From contig JBHLMN010000006.1 in the NCBI GenBank assembly GCA_048938105.1, positions 160,001 through 224,000 of the forward strand: a DNA stretch of 64,000 nucleotides. Reading direction: 5' to 3'. The notes under the pieces are model-generated. The model ran no database searches. It was not told the origin of the DNA and worked only from the letters and a program-made list of their open reading frames with translations. Below are positions 14,995 through 22,877 of this stretch, piece after piece. The translations under genes were made by a program, and so were the position numbers. This stretch comes from Promethearchaeota archaeon (lineage in GTDB: Archaea; Asgardarchaeota; Heimdallarchaeia; Hodarchaeales; Hodarchaeaceae). Each line of letters begins with the position of its first letter. Within the stretch, counting starts at the first letter, position 1.

Positions 14995-16266
14995 ATGTCT
15001 AATACAAACACAAACTTCTCTGCGCTTTTCGCTAACTTCAAATCAGTTTTTAGAGAAGAAAAAGTGTTCTCAGCTAATTATATTCCTAATCATCTTTGGC
15101 ATCGAGAGGAGGAGATGAAGAGCCTAGTTAACTATTTCAGGTCAATAATAACGGACCCTATCTCATCCTCCCGTAAAGTTGTTTTATACGGCCCAATAGG
15201 TACTGGAAAGACAGTTGTTTCCAGAGCTTTCGGGAAAGATCTCACCAAACATCTTAGAAAAAGACATAAACGAGGGGATCCCGTTTTCTGGTTTTTTCAC
15301 GTTAATTGTCGCAAAACCAAGACTCCTCACCTCATTCTAACTACGATCCTGAGAGAACTGGTTCCAGGTTTTCCTTTGCGCGGGTATAGTGTTGATGAAC
15401 TTCTCCGAATGTTCTCTTTACTATTACACGAACAAAATTTAGTGTCATTACTTGTTTTAGATGAGATCGATTATCTACTTCCTGATAATAGGACTGATTT
15501 TCTTTATGCATTGTCTCGTATCGAGGAGGGTGACCCTAAAATCCGAGAAGACCATTTTTCGAATTTTCCAGGTAATCAAACTGAATCTCGTTTCAATTTA
15601 TTATGCTGTACTCGTGACAAGAATTTTCGCTACCATCTTGACTCCTCTACCGCCTCCTCCCTTGGTAGAAACTTCATTACATTCCCTCCTTATACACGAA
15701 ATCAGCTTTTTGACATTGTGAGCTCCCGTGCAGAACTGGGACTCTGTAAAAAGAGTTTTGATGATGAACTAATTGAATCAATTGCTGGTCTGGCGGAAGA
15801 ATCTGGGGATGCTCGATTCGTAATTGAATTGTTATGGCGAGCTGCTAAACTTGCTGACCGAGAAAAGAACGAACAAATCACAGTTGAGCATGTACGCAAA
15901 GCAATTGTTTCTGTACTTCCTATTGAGAAATCAATTGTTGATGATTTAAGTACCCATCAAAAATTGCTCCTCTTAAGCATTGCCAAGCTCCTTATTAATA
16001 ATAAGTCATTTGTAACTACCCCAGAGGTAAAGAATGCTTATGTGAGTATTTGTGAGGAAGCAGGAGTACGCCCTCGTCGTCAAACTCAAATTTGGGCTTA
16101 TTTGAAAGATTTAACTAGACTAGGCCTCATTCAACAAGAAGTAAAGAACCGTCATAAGAATGGACGGTCGGAAGGGAGGATTACGACTATACAAGTCCGT
16201 GATATCCCCGTAATAGATATCATTCAGTCCTTAGGCCATTTAATTGAGGATTCTTCACAATCCTAG
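14995..16266 (+). CDS. cdc6: Cdc6/Orc1 replication initiator (AAA+ plus winged helix)
   Basis: YIPNHLWHREEE, Walker A GPIGTGKT, VNC, Walker B LVLDEID, FPPYT, GDAR, C-terminal wHTH. Confidence 0.9.
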   Translation: MSNTNTNFSALFANFKSVFREEKVFSANYIPNHLWHREEEMKSLVNYFRSIITDPISSSRKVVLYGPIGTGKTVVSRAFGKDLTKHLRKRHKRGDPVFWFFHVNCRKTKTPHLILTTILRELVPGFPLRGYSVDELLRMFSLLLHEQNLVSLLVLDEIDYLLPDNRTDFLYALSRIEEGDPKIREDHFSNFPGNQTESRFNLLCCTRDKNFRYHLDSSTASSLGRNFITFPPYTRNQLFDIVSSRAELGLCKKSFDDELIESIAGLAEESGDARFVIELLWRAAKLADREKNEQITVEHVRKAIVSVLPIEKSIVDDLSTHQKLLLLSIAKLLINNKSFVTTPEVKNAYVSICEEAGVRPRRQTQIWAYLKDLTRLGLIQQEVKNRHKNGRSEGRITTIQVRDIPVIDIIQSLGHLIEDSSQS

Positions 16267-17283
16267 GCCAAGAAAAAGCCAATTTACGCCAAACCATATT
16301 ACTCCTCCAAGTATAGCAGCGACTGGTACAGTAACTATCCATGATATAACTATCGTTTTTACCATTTTTCTTTGAATAGGTGACCTTTCTGCCCAACCAA
16401 CGGCAATCATGGCTGCTATTAAAACATGAGTTCCACTTAAAGGGAATCCTAGAAGCGTCCCTAATGTCATAATAAGTGTAACCGAAATCATTGAAGAAAG
16501 TCCAGAACTTGGAGTCATCTCAACAAGTTCTTTTGCTACAACCCGAATTACTATTTTTCCTATTATTATTAGGCCTAACGCCATGCCAAGGCCGCCTATC
16601 AGCATCATTACCCACATGTTTGTTGTTATAGTTTCACTTTCAAGTATTGTTAAACCTAAAACTGGTGCAATAGAGTTTGCAACGTCATTTCCGGCCCTAG
16701 ATGCAGAACTAATAATCAAGAATAGGCTTAAAGCATAAATGTATGCCTGATCTTTTTTCTGTTTACCTGTGAATCCTTCAACAGACTCATCAAGACGTTG
16801 TATCCAAAAATGGACTGTAGCTGCAACGGCAAACCCAATTAAGGGAGAGAGAATCCATCCCAGAAAGATCAAGAGGAGTACCCAATAATCGACTGCATTT
16901 ATTCCCCATTCGGAATAAGTAAAACCTGCCGTAATAGCGACTCCTATAATTGCACCAACGACTATTTGAGTAGTTGATATCGGTAAGGGGATGATTGTCA
17001 CATGTCCCACAAGTATGATTATCATAACCAGCAATACAGTAATGACCATAGCATTCGTCAATGTATTACCTTTTATCAAATCTTCCCCTAAAGTTTTCAC
17101 CACAGCTTCTCCTAAAAATACACCTAAAACCGAAAAAATAGCCCCTAAAATCACAGCAGTTCGCAAAGAAAATGCCCCTGCTGCTACTCCTGGTGCCATC
17201 ATCTCATCATTACTACCTGCAGCAAATGCAACTGCAAAAGCCATTAATACTGCAAATATAAGAATGATTATCTCGAAAGACAA
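16255..17283 (-). CDS. Inorganic phosphate transporter, PiT family
   Basis: GSND and GNDVANS signatures, PISTTQ, PLSGTH, SWIVTVP. Confidence 0.88.
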   Translation of the reverse strand: MSFEIIILIFAVLMAFAVAFAAGSNDEMMAPGVAAGAFSLRTAVILGAIFSVLGVFLGEAVVKTLGEDLIKGNTLTNAMVITVLLVMIIILVGHVTIIPLPISTTQIVVGAIIGVAITAGFTYSEWGINAVDYWVLLLIFLGWILSPLIGFAVAATVHFWIQRLDESVEGFTGKQKKDQAYIYALSLFLIISSASRAGNDVANSIAPVLGLTILESETITTNMWVMMLIGGLGMALGLIIIGKIVIRVVAKELVEMTPSSGLSSMISVTLIMTLGTLLGFPLSGTHVLIAAMIAVGWAERSPIQRKMVKTIVISWIVTVPVAAILGGVIWFGVNWLFLGLGL

Positions 17284-17338
17284 TGAATTTTAAACTCCTA
17301 TTAGTTTAAACCTTTTTAAAACAAAGATTAATTCAATT

Positions 17339-18025
17339 TTAACCATATTTCACCGTCATAGTTTGAATATAGTCTGCAGTCTGTTCTGCTGCCTCAGCGA
17401 CTTTAACCATACTTACTGAAATGGTGTACAAATACGCTGAGTCTTTAGGAGTATAATCAGGAGAATGTAATCGCCCAAAAATATGAAAGTCAAGGTCTCG
17501 TGCTTCCTCACGCATAGTTTCAACTTTATTTGCATAGTTTCGGGCTTTATCATAATCTTCATCCAAATACTTAAGAGCATCTTGAAGATAATCGGTGCAA
17601 TGATGTACTTTTTCTGCTAGAATTGGCATTTCATGTGGAATTCGTTTAGGAAAATCCTGTTTTGAAACCAAACGTCGAATAACTACTTCAGTTCGATTAA
17701 CTATAGTATCCATATAGCGGACTAGACGATGACGATCTTCAGTTGCCTGTGGGAGATAAGCACCTTTAGAAAAGATACTGTTAATTAGCTCTGCTTTAAT
17801 ATCGTCACAACGTCTTTCAGCTTCTATTATTTCATCTTTTAATTGGAGAATTTTAAGTCGAGCCTCAGCATCTTCTTCATGATTGGACCATATAATTATA
17901 GCTGTGCATAGCTTAGCAGAGGCGACTTGAAGTTCTTTTGCTAGGTTGTCAAATAGCTCTTCTCCTCGTTTCCAAAGTTTTTTATCTCTTCTGAACAACA
18001 TTATGCTTACCTTCTGACATTTCAA
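17339..18025 (-). CDS. DUF47 / PhoU-like phosphate transport regulator (real start probably ATG at 18001)
   Basis: ERRCDDIK, EDRHRL..MD, E.AD motifs; directly upstream of PiT, a common pairing. Confidence 0.8.
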   Translation of the reverse strand: MKCQKVSIMLFRRDKKLWKRGEELFDNLAKELQVASAKLCTAIIIWSNHEEDAEARLKILQLKDEIIEAERRCDDIKAELINSIFSKGAYLPQATEDRHRLVRYMDTIVNRTEVVIRRLVSKQDFPKRIPHEMPILAEKVHHCTDYLQDALKYLDEDYDKARNYANKVETMREEARDLDFHIFGRLHSPDYTPKDSAYLYTISVSMVKVAEAAEQTADYIQTMTVKYG

Positions 18026-18194
18026 GGATTTAAAATGTCTTTATTAATTTAGACACTCCTTTTTACTTTATAATGTAAAACAAAAGATCTTTTTCTCTAA
18101 TTGCATTTGGTTCCGTCAATAAAAGATTTATAATATTATTTAGGGGGAATCATAATTCAGATGAACCGACTTAATTTGGAGGTCGTATTTTCAA

Positions 18195-19172
18195 TTGGAG
18201 AAAGATAAAGAATTTTTTATCAGAAATTTAACAATTGATGATGAATATGACATTATTACTGCTGATTCAACAGTCAAAGATGCTGCTCTGAAAATGAAAG
18301 AGCTTGGTATCCCTGATTTAGTTGTTGTTGATAATGATAATAATGTATTAGGGGTGATTGCAGATTTCGACATCGTAACGGGACTTGTAGCTGAAGGTTT
18401 ATCTGCTGAAGCTGCTAAAGTAACTGAAATCATGTATACTATTGACCCAGTACACAAAGACACACCTGTATCAACTGCTTTCACTCGAATGCGTGATTTA
18501 GATGTATCGGTTGTTCCAGTTGTTGAAAACGAAAAATTGATTGGAGTCGCAACCATCACGGACTGCTGGGGTTTTTTACCAGAAAAATATGAAGACCAAA
18601 AGGGATTAATCGCAATTAATAATCCCCGATTCGCGAATTATAGCTTTACACTTCTGATGACCTTATTTTACTTTTGTTTTGGGATTTTAGCGCCATTAGT
18701 TGGCATTACAGGGTTCTTAAAAGCACCAGTTATGGGTTACACTGATGAGATAGCAACATATTATCTATTTGAGGCCCGAGGAGGAGGAGGTTTTTGGTTA
18801 CGCTATATTGATGTGCAAGGCGACTATAACCTATTATGGATTGGGGTATTTTTTTACGGGATTTTATTTCTAATCTTTGGTATTATCAGTGCTTTTGCCA
18901 TCTTTCAATGGGCGAATGCTGATTACAATCAGATAAAATTAACTAGAAATTGGCAGATAATTGGACTTGTTGTAGGTACCATAAATTTACTATTAGAATG
19001 GATTTTATTTCTGATCATATCATTAGTTGGTGCTTTACGGGTTTCAGGTGCCGTCAATTTTGATCTCATTGGCCTTGGAGTATCTGGATTAGCTATAATT
19101 TTTCTTATTGCTGCAGTCTCTAGGGATATTCTCTTCCGTGAGAGTATGATATCCACTTCCAAGGAGGAATGA
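18195..19172 (+). CDS. CBS-pair protein fused to a C-terminal 4-TM domain
   Basis: Two CBS repeats (aa ~15-130: TVKDAALKM..LVVVD..GVIADFD; VPVVENEKLIGV) followed by four hydrophobic helices. Confidence 0.8.
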   Translation: MEKDKEFFIRNLTIDDEYDIITADSTVKDAALKMKELGIPDLVVVDNDNNVLGVIADFDIVTGLVAEGLSAEAAKVTEIMYTIDPVHKDTPVSTAFTRMRDLDVSVVPVVENEKLIGVATITDCWGFLPEKYEDQKGLIAINNPRFANYSFTLLMTLFYFCFGILAPLVGITGFLKAPVMGYTDEIATYYLFEARGGGGFWLRYIDVQGDYNLLWIGVFFYGILFLIFGIISAFAIFQWANADYNQIKLTRNWQIIGLVVGTINLLLEWILFLIISLVGALRVSGAVNFDLIGLGVSGLAIIFLIAAVSRDILFRESMISTSKEE

Positions 19173-20830
19173 GTCTCGTGCCTCGCGGTGGTGGTGGTTT
19201 CCGAGGCGGGGGTTTTGGTGGTGGCGGTTTTCGTGGTGGGGGATTCAGAGGAGGTTCACGTGGTTTTCGAGTAGGAAGTGTTCGCTCATCTGGTCGTCCT
19301 TTTGGCCGCACAGGTGCCCGGCGAACTGTATCACGAGCTCCAATGGGGAGAAGTTATCATAGACCTCATCATCGACGTTATTGGGGTGGTTATTGGCGAC
19401 CTTGGTGGAGAAGGCCATGGCATTGGTATTGGTGGTGGGGGCGTCCTTGGAGGCCTTGGTATTATGGTCCAGTTTACTGGGGTGGTGGATTAATTCTTGC
19501 AATAGTTGCATTATTAATTTTTCTTCCACTTATTGGAGTAGCTTTCTGGTTCCCCTTTACTAATGCTTCTTCAAGTGGTATTGTAACCTATTCTGATACT
19601 CAGACATTATACTACAATGAATATTGGTATGAGAAAGAGTATTTATCTCAAGGTCAGACTATTGAATACCGTATCGAATCTAAAAGCGAAGTAACCTTCA
19701 TAATTTGGAACCAACCATTTGAGAATTTTAACACAAAGACTTTATTGGGTAATTACAGCGAAAAAGGTATGGTTGTTCAAGGTAATCATGATTATCAATA
19801 TATTGGTTACTTTCTGAAACCTGGTTCTCGACTAGATTATCAATTTAATGTCACCATAGGAGGACCCATTGAATTCTTCGTCACAGATGCTAACGATTTG
19901 AATCGTTGGAATAACTGGGAAACTATCACCCCTAAAGATTCCTATTTAGGATCTCTTGAATATAGTGGTGGAGTTGACATCATTGATGCTCAGGATTATT
20001 ACCTTGTGTGGTATAATAGTGGATCAAATCCTGTTACAATTGACTACACTGTTGAATATTCTGCAGTGGGTGCATTCGACTTCAGTGAAGCACCTGTAGT
20101 TGAAAGTGATGTGGTTGAACCTGTATCCGGTTCACTATCAGTTCCTTCCAGTAGCGATTGGTACTTCTTTGTATACTTTGATCCTTTTGTTAATCCAGCA
20201 GAATCAGTTGATATTACCTTTGATGTCTCCTATCATACCGAAGTGACTTATGATCAGAAATGGAAAGATTTTACACCAGTTCTACTTCTAATTGGTTTTA
20301 TAATTGTTGTTTTACTGGTTATTGCTATTATTCAACGAAAAACAGCTAAAAAAACTCCCCCGACTGAGACTGTAGCTGCAGCGACCACAACTCCTACAAC
20401 GACCGAAACCGTTCCAGTATCAACAGCGAAGAAATGTCATCGCTGTAATTCACCTTCTAAACCTGGTGATGTCTTTTGTGTAAATTGTGGTGCAAAATTA
20501 ACAGGAAGAGATTACGGTGTTTCAACAATAACCACACCAGCTTCCGCTAAAAACTGTCAAAGCTGTGGTCAGCCCATTATTCCAGGAAGTCGCTTCTGTA
20601 AATACTGCGGTGCTAAGATAGAACAGGAACCCAAGCCACATAAATATTTCCCTGATGAAAGAGAGGCCTTTTTCTGCCAATTAGATAACGAAAAGCACCC
20701 CTCAACTGATTCAGCTTACGAATGCGATCAATGTGCGCGAAAGGTCTGTGGTGACTGTTATGATAATATTACTAAAACAGGCGTAACTCGTTGTCCCTAT
20801 TGTAAAGGAGAGTTGTATAAGATCCAGTGA
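19169..20830 (+). CDS. Two-pass membrane protein: RGG/FG-rich N-terminus, extracellular beta domain, double zinc ribbon, C-terminal RING-like finger
   Basis: RGGGF repeats; two TM helices; CHRC..CVNC and CQSC..CKYC ribbons; C-x2-D-x12-C-x2-C-x4-C-x2-C-x11-C-x2-C; ATGA overlap with upstream gene. Confidence 0.8.
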   Translation: MSLVPRGGGGFRGGGFGGGGFRGGGFRGGSRGFRVGSVRSSGRPFGRTGARRTVSRAPMGRSYHRPHHRRYWGGYWRPWWRRPWHWYWWWGRPWRPWYYGPVYWGGGLILAIVALLIFLPLIGVAFWFPFTNASSSGIVTYSDTQTLYYNEYWYEKEYLSQGQTIEYRIESKSEVTFIIWNQPFENFNTKTLLGNYSEKGMVVQGNHDYQYIGYFLKPGSRLDYQFNVTIGGPIEFFVTDANDLNRWNNWETITPKDSYLGSLEYSGGVDIIDAQDYYLVWYNSGSNPVTIDYTVEYSAVGAFDFSEAPVVESDVVEPVSGSLSVPSSSDWYFFVYFDPFVNPAESVDITFDVSYHTEVTYDQKWKDFTPVLLLIGFIIVVLLVIAIIQRKTAKKTPPTETVAAATTTPTTTETVPVSTAKKCHRCNSPSKPGDVFCVNCGAKLTGRDYGVSTITTPASAKNCQSCGQPIIPGSRFCKYCGAKIEQEPKPHKYFPDEREAFFCQLDNEKHPSTDSAYECDQCARKVCGDCYDNITKTGVTRCPYCKGELYKIQ

Positions 20831-22064: not shown

Positions 22065-22877
22065 TTGCATAAAGTTGTTCTATTCATCCTGATTTTGACC
22101 TTTGTTATGATTTCAAGAGGAAGTGGAAAGAATGAATTCCCTATAAACGCTTGCCCTTTTTCTCTAGGGGACAGAGCAGAGTATGAGATTTGGGGAGAAT
22201 GGCAAGGAAAGGATCGTGCATTAAACCATGGAAATAATACTGGGCTACAGAAATTTATCACGTTAAATAGGACTCAATCACATATTTTGATTTATGAGAC
22301 CAAATCAGAAAAAATCAGGGGAATATTTGAAGGAATGCTTAAGACATGGTTGGTTGAGGCTAGTTCTTACTGGATCTATGATGTTACATCACGAAATCTA
22401 GAAGGAACTGATTCCTACGCCTGGTTGTGGATCCGCGCCACCGATATTGGAAAAGAAAATCCTAGGATTGAAATTTTCGATTTGATTTTTCAAATAACTG
22501 GTACAAAGGAGTTCTTTTATTTTGGACAAATGAGAAGCGCTTGGGTTGCTACTTATAATAAATTCCTGGACGATCCGATAAATGCTCTTCATGTAATTAG
22601 TTACGAATTTTGGTTTGACATTAAAACTGGATTGATGTTATATTATGTTGTTAGACTTAATGCTTTTGATTTGCAAGGCAGATTGGTCGAATGGTCTTAT
22701 TACTCAACTAGATTGAACTTTACAACAGTTAATCTCAATTCAAGCTATTTATTTAATGAGAAAAATGGAATCTCAGAAAATACACCAACAATACTCTTGT
22801 ATCCAGTTTCAATCATTACCTGTTCACTGATTTTGATATTCATTCGCTTGATACGAAAAGGGAAGGATAGTATGTAA
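22065..22877 (+). CDS. Hypothetical secreted protein with C-terminal membrane anchor
   Basis: Signal-like N-terminus, beta-rich body (WFDIKTGLMLY), C-terminal TM with basic tail, several N-x-S/T sequons. Confidence 0.6.
   Translation: MHKVVLFILILTFVMISRGSGKNEFPINACPFSLGDRAEYEIWGEWQGKDRALNHGNNTGLQKFITLNRTQSHILIYETKSEKIRGIFEGMLKTWLVEASSYWIYDVTSRNLEGTDSYAWLWIRATDIGKENPRIEIFDLIFQITGTKEFFYFGQMRSAWVATYNKFLDDPINALHVISYEFWFDIKTGLMLYYVVRLNAFDLQGRLVEWSYYSTRLNFTTVNLNSSYLFNEKNGISENTPTILLYPVSIITCSLILIFIRLIRKGKDSM

Follow-up and report, generated by a model that had tools for sequence, protein, structure and literature searches.

Described relatives of the locus

The APD1-4 proteins of plants are transmembrane RING E3 ubiquitin ligases of the endomembrane system (PMC6118397), 'orphan' ligases with unknown substrates (PMC13210498). 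Arabidopsis APD1-4 (PF16040, PF16041 and zf-C3HC4_3) have two transmembrane (TM) helices flanking a luminal or extracellular beta-sandwich domain, and a RING-type zinc finger lies in the cytosol past TM2. Two adjacent genes at positions 18195-20830 of a 64,000-nucleotide (nt) stretch of Asgard archaeal DNA (the window, to which all positions refer) encode proteins that invite comparison with this family. By profile comparison, gene 2 is a well-supported archaeal APD-like two-pass membrane protein, and gene 1 encodes its conserved partner, a tetraspan membrane protein with an N-terminal CBS pair. In the source genus, which is Heimdall/Hodarchaeales-like, gene 2 also ends in a RING-like finger and is a candidate membrane E3 ligase.

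RING E3s described from archaea are of another shape. Both srfp from Caldiarchaeum (PMC5654768) and the Helarchaeial E3 (bioRxiv 10.1101/2023.07.25.550441) are small soluble RING-H2 proteins within ubiquitin operons, and Asgard E1/E2/RING cascades function in vitro (bioRxiv 10.1101/2023.07.25.550441). The gene 2 finger resembles them in having eight ligands and in belonging to a genome with ubiquitin, E1 and E2 genes. It differs in being membrane-anchored, in having Asp at ligand 2, and in that the ubiquitin clusters lie on other contigs. The reading favored here, to which we give roughly an even chance, is that the two products are subunits of a conserved Asgard membrane module in which gene 2 is a member of the APD family, and its finger, in the source genus, a candidate RING E3 that recruits E2. 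We infer E3 activity, gating by the CBS pair and physical pairing of the two proteins.

The APD-like core of gene 2

The pair and the parts of gene 2 are located as follows, with the residues of gene 2 counted from ATG 19169 and TM helices taken in part from AlphaFold2 (AF2) models, the confidence of which is given as the predicted local distance difference test (pLDDT).

18195-19172 (+): gene 1, an open reading frame (ORF) of 325 amino acids (aa) with a TTG start; CBS-pair and tetraspan membrane protein
19169-20830 (+): gene 2, an ORF of 553 aa from ATG 19169 or 550 aa from GTG 19178; APD-like two-pass membrane protein
19178-19486 (+): cytosolic N-terminal tail with RGG/FG repeats, a PFGRTG motif and an Arg/Trp/Tyr-rich juxtamembrane stretch (from the alignment; low pLDDT)
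19487-19549 (+): TM1, residues about 107-127 (AF2 helix 101-127), within the hhalign match to APD-type proteins
19550-20248 (+): extracellular APD1-4_N/M-like beta-sandwich ectodomain, residues about 128-360 (pLDDT >90)
19742-20077 (+): GOLD-like sandwich within the ectodomain, residues 192-303 (VIA-align)
20264-20332 (+): TM2, residues about 366-388 (AF2 helix 361-393), aligned with TM2 of APD-type proteins
20435-20611 (+): cytosolic double zinc ribbon, two CxxC...CxxC, residues 423-481 (PF12773, E 2.1e-9)
20669-20827 (+): C-terminal RING-like finger, residues 501-553, specific to the genus (from the alignment of orthologues and paralogues)

An earlier note on this DNA had proposed for gene 2 a basic tail, TM1, a beta-rich domain, TM2, a Thr-rich linker, zinc ribbons and a finger, and this layout is borne out by the AF2 model and by Pfam. 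The sequons of the ectodomain are NAS132, NYS195 and NVT227. The N-terminal tail is predicted to be disordered (low pLDDT) yet is strongly conserved, with P44-F45-G46-R47-T48-G49, W97, P101 and Y103 invariant in 112 sequences. The Thr-rich linker that follows TM2 is modeled with low confidence. The double zinc ribbon scores 37.8 bits against PF12773 (cutoff 27.3), and all eight of its Cys residues are invariant in the same 112 sequences. No NCBIfam match was found for gene 2.

The relationship to APD1-4 is carried by profile searches. A profile search of 1.84 billion representative sequences brought up proteins that score above the Pfam cutoffs of APD1-4_N and APD1-4_M. An hhalign comparison of the Asgard family profile with seven APD-type proteins gave 99.8% and E 2e-28 over 247 columns, running from TM1 to TM2; six of these seven proteins match APD1-4_N and/or APD1-4_M in hmmscan (four of them above the gathering score), and the seventh is a near-identical cluster mate. 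PF16040 (APD1-4_N) matches 84 of 111 ectodomains of the gene 2 family, with a best E of 1.6e-7. The ectodomain of the query itself (residues 130-362) reaches 16.7 bits against this model (E 0.0061), below the cutoff of 27, and does not match PF16041. One of the retrieved APD-type proteins is eukaryotic, as its gene shares a 451-kb contig with neighbors encoding SF3b10 and ANAPC3, and another comes from EukProt. A shape search of the ESM Atlas also led to a Streptophyta cluster with APD1-4_N, APD1-4_M and zf-C3HC4_3. Finally, the Gly-rich N-terminus M-P/G-R/H-x-G-G-G (MP[RH]GGG) is common to the eukaryote-type relatives and the Asgard proteins. As judged from these alignments, the TM1-ectodomain-TM2 core of gene 2 is homologous to the eukaryotic APD1-4_N/M family. 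The earlier note had likened the TM-ectodomain-TM layout to that of eukaryotic membrane E3 ligases, which thus turns out to be more than an analogy. Its remark that no prokaryotic system with this layout had been described agrees with the literature searched, the coverage of which was limited and in which no paper linking APD/DUF4792 to Asgard archaea was found.

Within this shared plan, gene 2 and APD1-4 differ in several respects. The finger of source-genus gene 2, like that of the APD family, is a RING-type zinc finger on the cytosolic side past TM2, and the eukaryote-type relatives have a Gly-rich N-terminal tail as gene 2 does. In gene 2, however, the finger follows an additional double zinc ribbon, is of a C3DC4 type with C4C4 spacing rather than C3HC4, occurs in one genus only and does not match PF13920. 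The archaeal gene is also coupled to that of a CBS-tetraspan partner.

Two further groups of relatives were seen. Eukaryote-type APD1-4_N/M proteins (P0338, P0376, P0380, P0390 and P0407) have Pro/Tyr-rich tails, some of them PPxY-like, in place of a RING. A separate prokaryotic APD-like branch (P0347 and P0354; loci L039 and L040) ends in a zinc ribbon and a RING-H2 finger that matches zf-RING_2 over the whole model (E about 3e-5) but narrowly misses the cutoff; this branch has no CBS-tetraspan gene alongside.

The ectodomain profile found no match among PDB sequences. By structure, residues 192-303 superpose on the GOLD domain of p24beta1 (5azw) with Z 11.6 and a root-mean-square deviation (rmsd) of 1.5 A over 89 of 93 residues (VIA-align), and other GOLD domains follow at Z 10-11.3 (5gu5, 7rrm and 4tlg at 10.7-11.3). 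The SEC14L and ACBD3 GOLD domains are up to 23% identical to this region. Other jelly-roll folds come within about one Z unit of the GOLD domains, and gene 2 differs from p24 and SEC14L in that its sandwich forms part of a larger ectodomain with two sandwiches. By sequence, gene 2 falls outside the p24/TMED GOLD family, as PF01105 touches a single one of 111 members at E 0.03. A layout like that of MUL1/GIDE was also considered for gene 2 and rejected, PF12483 giving no match at E<=0.1.

Conservation of the gene pair

Conservation was surveyed in 150 genomes of the phylum, counting gene 2 when full-length. Besides the source genome, 23 genomes spread over three families encode it: six belong to the genus of the query, 16 to family f13 and one to f26. 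Each of the 23 has a full-length gene 1 homologue as the immediate upstream neighbor of gene 2, in the same orientation. The adjacency was confirmed ORF by ORF in 20 loci, making 21 pair loci with the window included. Clustering of the flanking ORFs across these loci left gene 1 and gene 2 as the only genes common to all, with no third gene conserved alongside the pair; a HAD hydrolase lies near it in 11 Loki-type loci, in varying positions. More widely, there are 392 homologues of gene 1 at E<=1e-20 and at least 252 of gene 2. The nearest named homologues come from metagenome-assembled genomes of Heimdallarchaeota/Hodarchaeales, and remoter ones from Lokiarchaeota/Promethearchaeota together with one Hermodarchaeota record. 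The spacing of 1-5 nt between the genes is kept across lineages in which the proteins are only about 40-45% identical and the flanking genes all change. Gene order and spacing thus argue for a conserved, translationally coupled pair, found together far beyond chance, and the expectation of the earlier note that the two genes would keep company across Asgard genomes held in every one of these genomes.

Co-transcription need not mean a complex. The two products might act separately in a shared pathway or share their regulation and nothing else. A predicted complex of the two proteins, with gene 2 entered as residues 36-490, scored 0.11 against a mark of 0.32, in a run without controls that gives no evidence either way. 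Against this explanation stand the strict adjacency and the tight spacing maintained at that level of divergence, as well as the fact that both products are membrane proteins with outer-face elements; we hold it to be very unlikely.

Start codon and expression signals

Signals at the two gene starts were read from the sequence as follows.

about 18127-18134 (+): TATA-like TTTATAAT upstream of gene 1, a putative promoter element
18178-18182 (+): Shine-Dalgarno-like GGAGG of gene 1, 12 nt before TTG 18195
19163-19167 (+): Shine-Dalgarno-like GGAGG for gene 2, within the end of gene 1 and 10 nt before GTG 19178

The earlier note had described two ORFs that overlap by ATGA at 19169-19172 with a GGAGG just upstream, and all of these elements are present as described. 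It had also taken the overlap as a sign of co-translation. In this case, the first codon of gene 2 would be ATG 19169, which is disfavored because the GGAGG ends only 1 nt before it, too close for a ribosome-binding site. In 21 of 21 loci a start codon (ATG, GTG or TTG) stands directly before PRGGG, 1-5 nt past the stop of gene 1, with GGAGG or GAGGTG 8-12 nt upstream, and the protein begins with MPRGGG in 89 of 112 homologues. Given this geometry and the conserved N-terminus, the start of gene 2 in the window is likely GTG 19178, leaving a gap of 5 nt instead of an overlap. The tight coupling of the two genes stands with either codon, so that the co-translation proposal keeps its substance while the overlap itself is probably not used. 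A scan of the locus for sigma-70 promoters and terminators was uninformative, the host being an archaeon.

The CBS-tetraspan partner

Gene 1 is divided into a cytosolic and a membrane part.

18213-18584 (+): cytosolic CBS pair (Bateman module), residues ~7-130 (PF00571, E 1.3e-13; solved CBS pairs at Z up to 16.8)
18624-19118 (+): predicted membrane domain of four TM helices, its first outer loop forming a beta-sheet, residues ~144-308 (AF2; claudin/TARP-like fold)

The description of gene 1 as a CBS protein with four TM segments is upheld by its match to PF00571, which covers two stretches at 51.4 bits (cutoff 24), and by four helices in the AF2 model (residues 144-169, 212-244, 253-278 and 291-308; mean pLDDT 87.6). 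NCBIfam yields generic CBS matches only. The CBS pair superposes on 1xkf with Z 16.8 and rmsd 2.7 A over 120 of 120 residues, and the CBS pairs of MgtE and CNNM are among its other structural matches (Foldseek/VIA).

The first outer loop of the membrane domain is modeled as a four-stranded sheet, with strands at residues 175-203. Shape searches of the ESM Atlas relate this domain to PMP22_Claudin, calcium-channel gamma/TARP, SUR7 and DUF4293 clusters at TM-scores of 0.67-0.74, and among solved structures other than CBS proteins it comes closest to TARP gamma-7 (Z 11.7, 165 of 181 residues aligned). The modeled domain is accordingly claudin/TARP-like in fold only. Like gene 1, the claudin, PMP22, TARP-gamma and SUR7 proteins have four TM helices and a beta-sheet in the first outer loop. 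Unlike them, gene 1 has no Cys in residues 170-211 and so lacks the claudin-type loop-1 Cys pair, and there is no sequence similarity between the two groups. In Pfam at E<=1, the membrane domains of 45 gene 1 proteins matched neither PF00822 nor PF13903 and had only scattered matches to domains of unknown function, a profile search found no sequence relatives of the membrane domain in the PDB, and feature searches of the Atlas returned scores of 0.83 or less, in the range of chance. The bacterial DUF4293 cluster matches the fold equally well as the claudin and TARP clusters. An N-terminal CBS pair is not known as a feature of the claudin, PMP22, TARP or SUR7 families.

Fusions of CBS domains to membrane domains are typical of transporters and channels such as MgtE, CNNM/CorC and ClC, and in light of the MgtE and CNNM matches the pair might instead be a CBS-regulated channel- or transporter-like complex, its four-TM and two-TM subunits forming or controlling a pore. 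The neighborhood of the pair offers some encouragement, as a PiT-type phosphate transporter gene and a PhoU_div gene adjoin it in the window and in locus L009, and adjoin a distant family member in L037. This occurs in just two of the 21 pair loci, though, and the membrane domain of gene 1 matches tetraspan auxiliary and junction proteins rather than transporter folds. Pfam scans of the pair detected no transporter family, and neither a large ectodomain nor zinc-binding tails are features of transporters. A channel or transporter is therefore very unlikely.

In the window, the phosphate transporter gene (PHO4) and PhoU_div lie at 16255-18025 (-), divergent from the pair. Both were considered as parts of the module and were excluded because they are neighbors in only two of the 21 loci. 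On an unrelated contig from a metagenome, the two genes lie just downstream of the distant member of the APD1-4_N family (L037:7414-9159). The gene upstream of that family member was examined as a possible gene 1 homologue and ruled out (hhalign probability 0.3%).

The RING-like finger

Residues 501-553 of gene 2 read C-x2-D-x12-C-x2-C-x4-C-x2-C-x11-C-x2-C, which by its pattern is a RING-type spacing of eight ligands, C4C4 with Asp at ligand 2. All eight ligands (C503, D506, C519, C522, C527, C530, C542 and C545) are invariant in the 27 finger-bearing orthologues, as are L505, P543 and K546. The spacing of ligands 3-8 is identical to that of the C4C4 RINGs of CNOT4/Not4 and cellulose synthase (CesA). 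Compared with those fingers, the first knuckle here is C-x2-D (C-x2-C in three paralogues), and the Pfam scores lie under the cutoffs. When a profile of 15 fingers was searched against the PDB, the RING of CesA IRX3 (1weo) came first, at E 6.7e-4 over profile positions 2-50, followed by those of p44, MAT1, BRE1, TRIM32, RNF4 and CNOT4. In the AF2 model (pLDDT about 80-87), the finger has short strands and a helix starting at the third Cys pair, which is consistent with a RING, the zinc topology not being shown by the model. The profile also matches, over its whole length, the 72-residue chain a of PDB entry 9fhl ('aS34') at E 0.0042.

The archaeal RING E3 srfp requires I30, W58 and R69 for activity (PMC5654768). 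Residues of the same kinds, hydrophobic and basic, are found at the corresponding motif positions of the finger, where L505, I534 and K546 would take the places of I30, W58 and R69, respectively, a correspondence drawn by motif and not by alignment.

The finger is not an isolated feature of gene 2. Eight other proteins of the same genome contain 11 further fingers of this type, in three of which ligand 2 (position 6 of the finger) is Cys, giving a plain C4C4 arrangement. Ubiquitin-like genes lie in three clusters of the genome, which also has five genes of ThiF/E1 type and no fewer than four E2 homologues, so that the genome-level ubiquitin system on which the earlier note had made its ligase proposal depend is present in all three components.

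Among the proteins with such fingers, a 588-aa protein (C38:93766-95532; loci L029 and L034) has two and is encoded between an SPFH gene and an E1 gene, in a cluster that also includes EAP30/Vps36-like (ESCRT-II-like), ubiquitin-like, E2 and JAB genes. The two-finger protein is a candidate E3 for this ESCRT-ubiquitin cluster. A 381-aa protein (C8:33393-34538; L026) combines a CBM96 outer domain, one TM helix and a Pro-rich linker with a finger 53% identical to that of gene 2, and is by its domain makeup a second receptor-shaped protein with a finger tail. The finger has expanded in the genus, with further copies on contigs C43, C38, C56, C49, C20 and C39 (L027-L033). Small stand-alone proteins (89-101 aa) carry it, as do a TPR protein of 974 aa, repeat proteins of winged-helix/PCI-like type and a multi-TM protein of 914 aa, part of which is E3_UFM1_ligase-like.

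Ligase or scaffold

Several observations weigh against a role of the pair in ubiquitin ligation. Only 27 of the 112 family members carry the finger, all of them in the clade of the query and at least 60% identical to it, and in the sample of 150 genomes, matches to residues 495-553 were confined to the source genus. The other 85 members lack it, including all Loki-type orthologues, which end after the second zinc ribbon yet keep the gene pair. Since most of the family does without the finger, the conserved function of the operon cannot depend on it, and whatever the pair does in all these lineages is not E3 activity through the finger. None of the Pfam RING models attains its gathering score on the finger; zf-RING_4 comes closest with E 0.0081, followed by zf-UDP with E 0.013, and the E-values against solved RINGs are marginal. 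The proposal of a RING-like finger in the earlier note is thus supported in ligand spacing and in the nature of the best solved matches, while it lacks a Pfam score above cutoff and applies to a minority of the family. The RING folds of CesA, p44 and MAT1 are known as assembly modules rather than ligases, and the CesA finger is not known to be a ligase. The eukaryote-type relatives were recovered without a RING, and the claudin-like assignment of gene 1 is a likeness of modeled fold.

Phylogeny adds a further point on the same side. A quick maximum-likelihood tree, unrooted and with long branches, separates two groups (SH-aLRT 99), one with the eukaryote-like proteins and four APD1-4_N proteins of prokaryotic context, and the other with the remaining archaeal proteins, those of Heimdall and Loki type included. 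The clade with the finger neighbors the Loki clade and is set apart from the eukaryote-like one. From this placement, the finger looks like a separate acquisition and not the ancestor of the APD RING, which is the sole inference drawn from the tree.

These points bear on the main rival explanation, that the pair is a receptor or scaffold without ligase activity. According to this explanation, the finger would be a non-catalytic RING-fold module for assembly or dimerization, comparable to those of CesA, TFIIH p44 and MAT1 and attached to many proteins, and the outputs of the complex would be the zinc ribbons and the Gly/Arg tail. The top solved matches of the finger do include non-ligase RING folds (CesA 1weo, p44 5nus and MAT1 1g25), its hosts are very different proteins (CBM96, TPR, winged-helix repeat and small stand-alone), most gene 2 family members manage without it, and the linchpin Lys is not kept in the finger paralogues. 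On the other hand, L505, P543 and K546, which are of the kind found at E2 interfaces, do not vary in any of the finger-bearing orthologues, and one finger paralogue is encoded inside an E1/ubiquitin/E2/JAB cluster. RING modules have also been joined to the membrane core in at least three lineages (the source genus, the RING-H2 branch and plants), and the eukaryote-type relatives have PPxY-rich tails instead; both patterns suggest that the membrane core has long been linked in function with ubiquitin ligases. A scaffold without ligase activity is accordingly regarded as possible but on the unlikely side.

Proposed mechanism and significance

In the favored reading, that of a two-subunit membrane module with a candidate E3 tail in one genus, the tetraspan protein would bind the two-pass subunit laterally, in the manner of tetraspan auxiliary subunits. 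The CBS pair of gene 1 may report adenosyl-nucleotide status on the cytosolic side, while the ectodomain of gene 2 would bind an outside or surface ligand. In the source genus, the finger could then recruit a charged E2, leading to ubiquitination of membrane-proximal proteins or of the complex itself, which possibly feeds ESCRT-type sorting. Where a lineage lacks the finger, output to the cytosol would be left to the zinc ribbons and the Gly/Arg tail alone.

A bolder proposal is that an APD-like protein with a CBS-tetraspan partner was present in the Asgard ancestor of eukaryotes as an unlisted eukaryotic signature system, a surface-receptor module coupling an outside domain to membrane ubiquitin ligation, with the finger form of the source genus a working membrane-anchored RING E3 that feeds the archaeal ubiquitin-ESCRT pathway. 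We hold this to be doubtful and rather unlikely.

An archaeal relative with the same TM-domain-TM core extends the APD family to Asgard archaea. The Asgard form comes with a conserved membrane partner and, in one genus, with a RING-like finger in a genome that has full ubiquitin and ESCRT toolkits. This offers a simpler setting for asking what the APD outer domain binds, and makes it testable whether membrane-anchored ubiquitin ligation predated eukaryotes.

Other genes near the pair

A Cdc6/Orc1 gene lies beside the pair at 14995-16266 (+), and likewise in four of the five same-genus loci examined; a replication origin may therefore be nearby. Downstream of the pair, a 270-aa ORF at 22065-22877 (+), which has hydrophobic N- and C-terminal segments and no Pfam match, may encode another surface protein.

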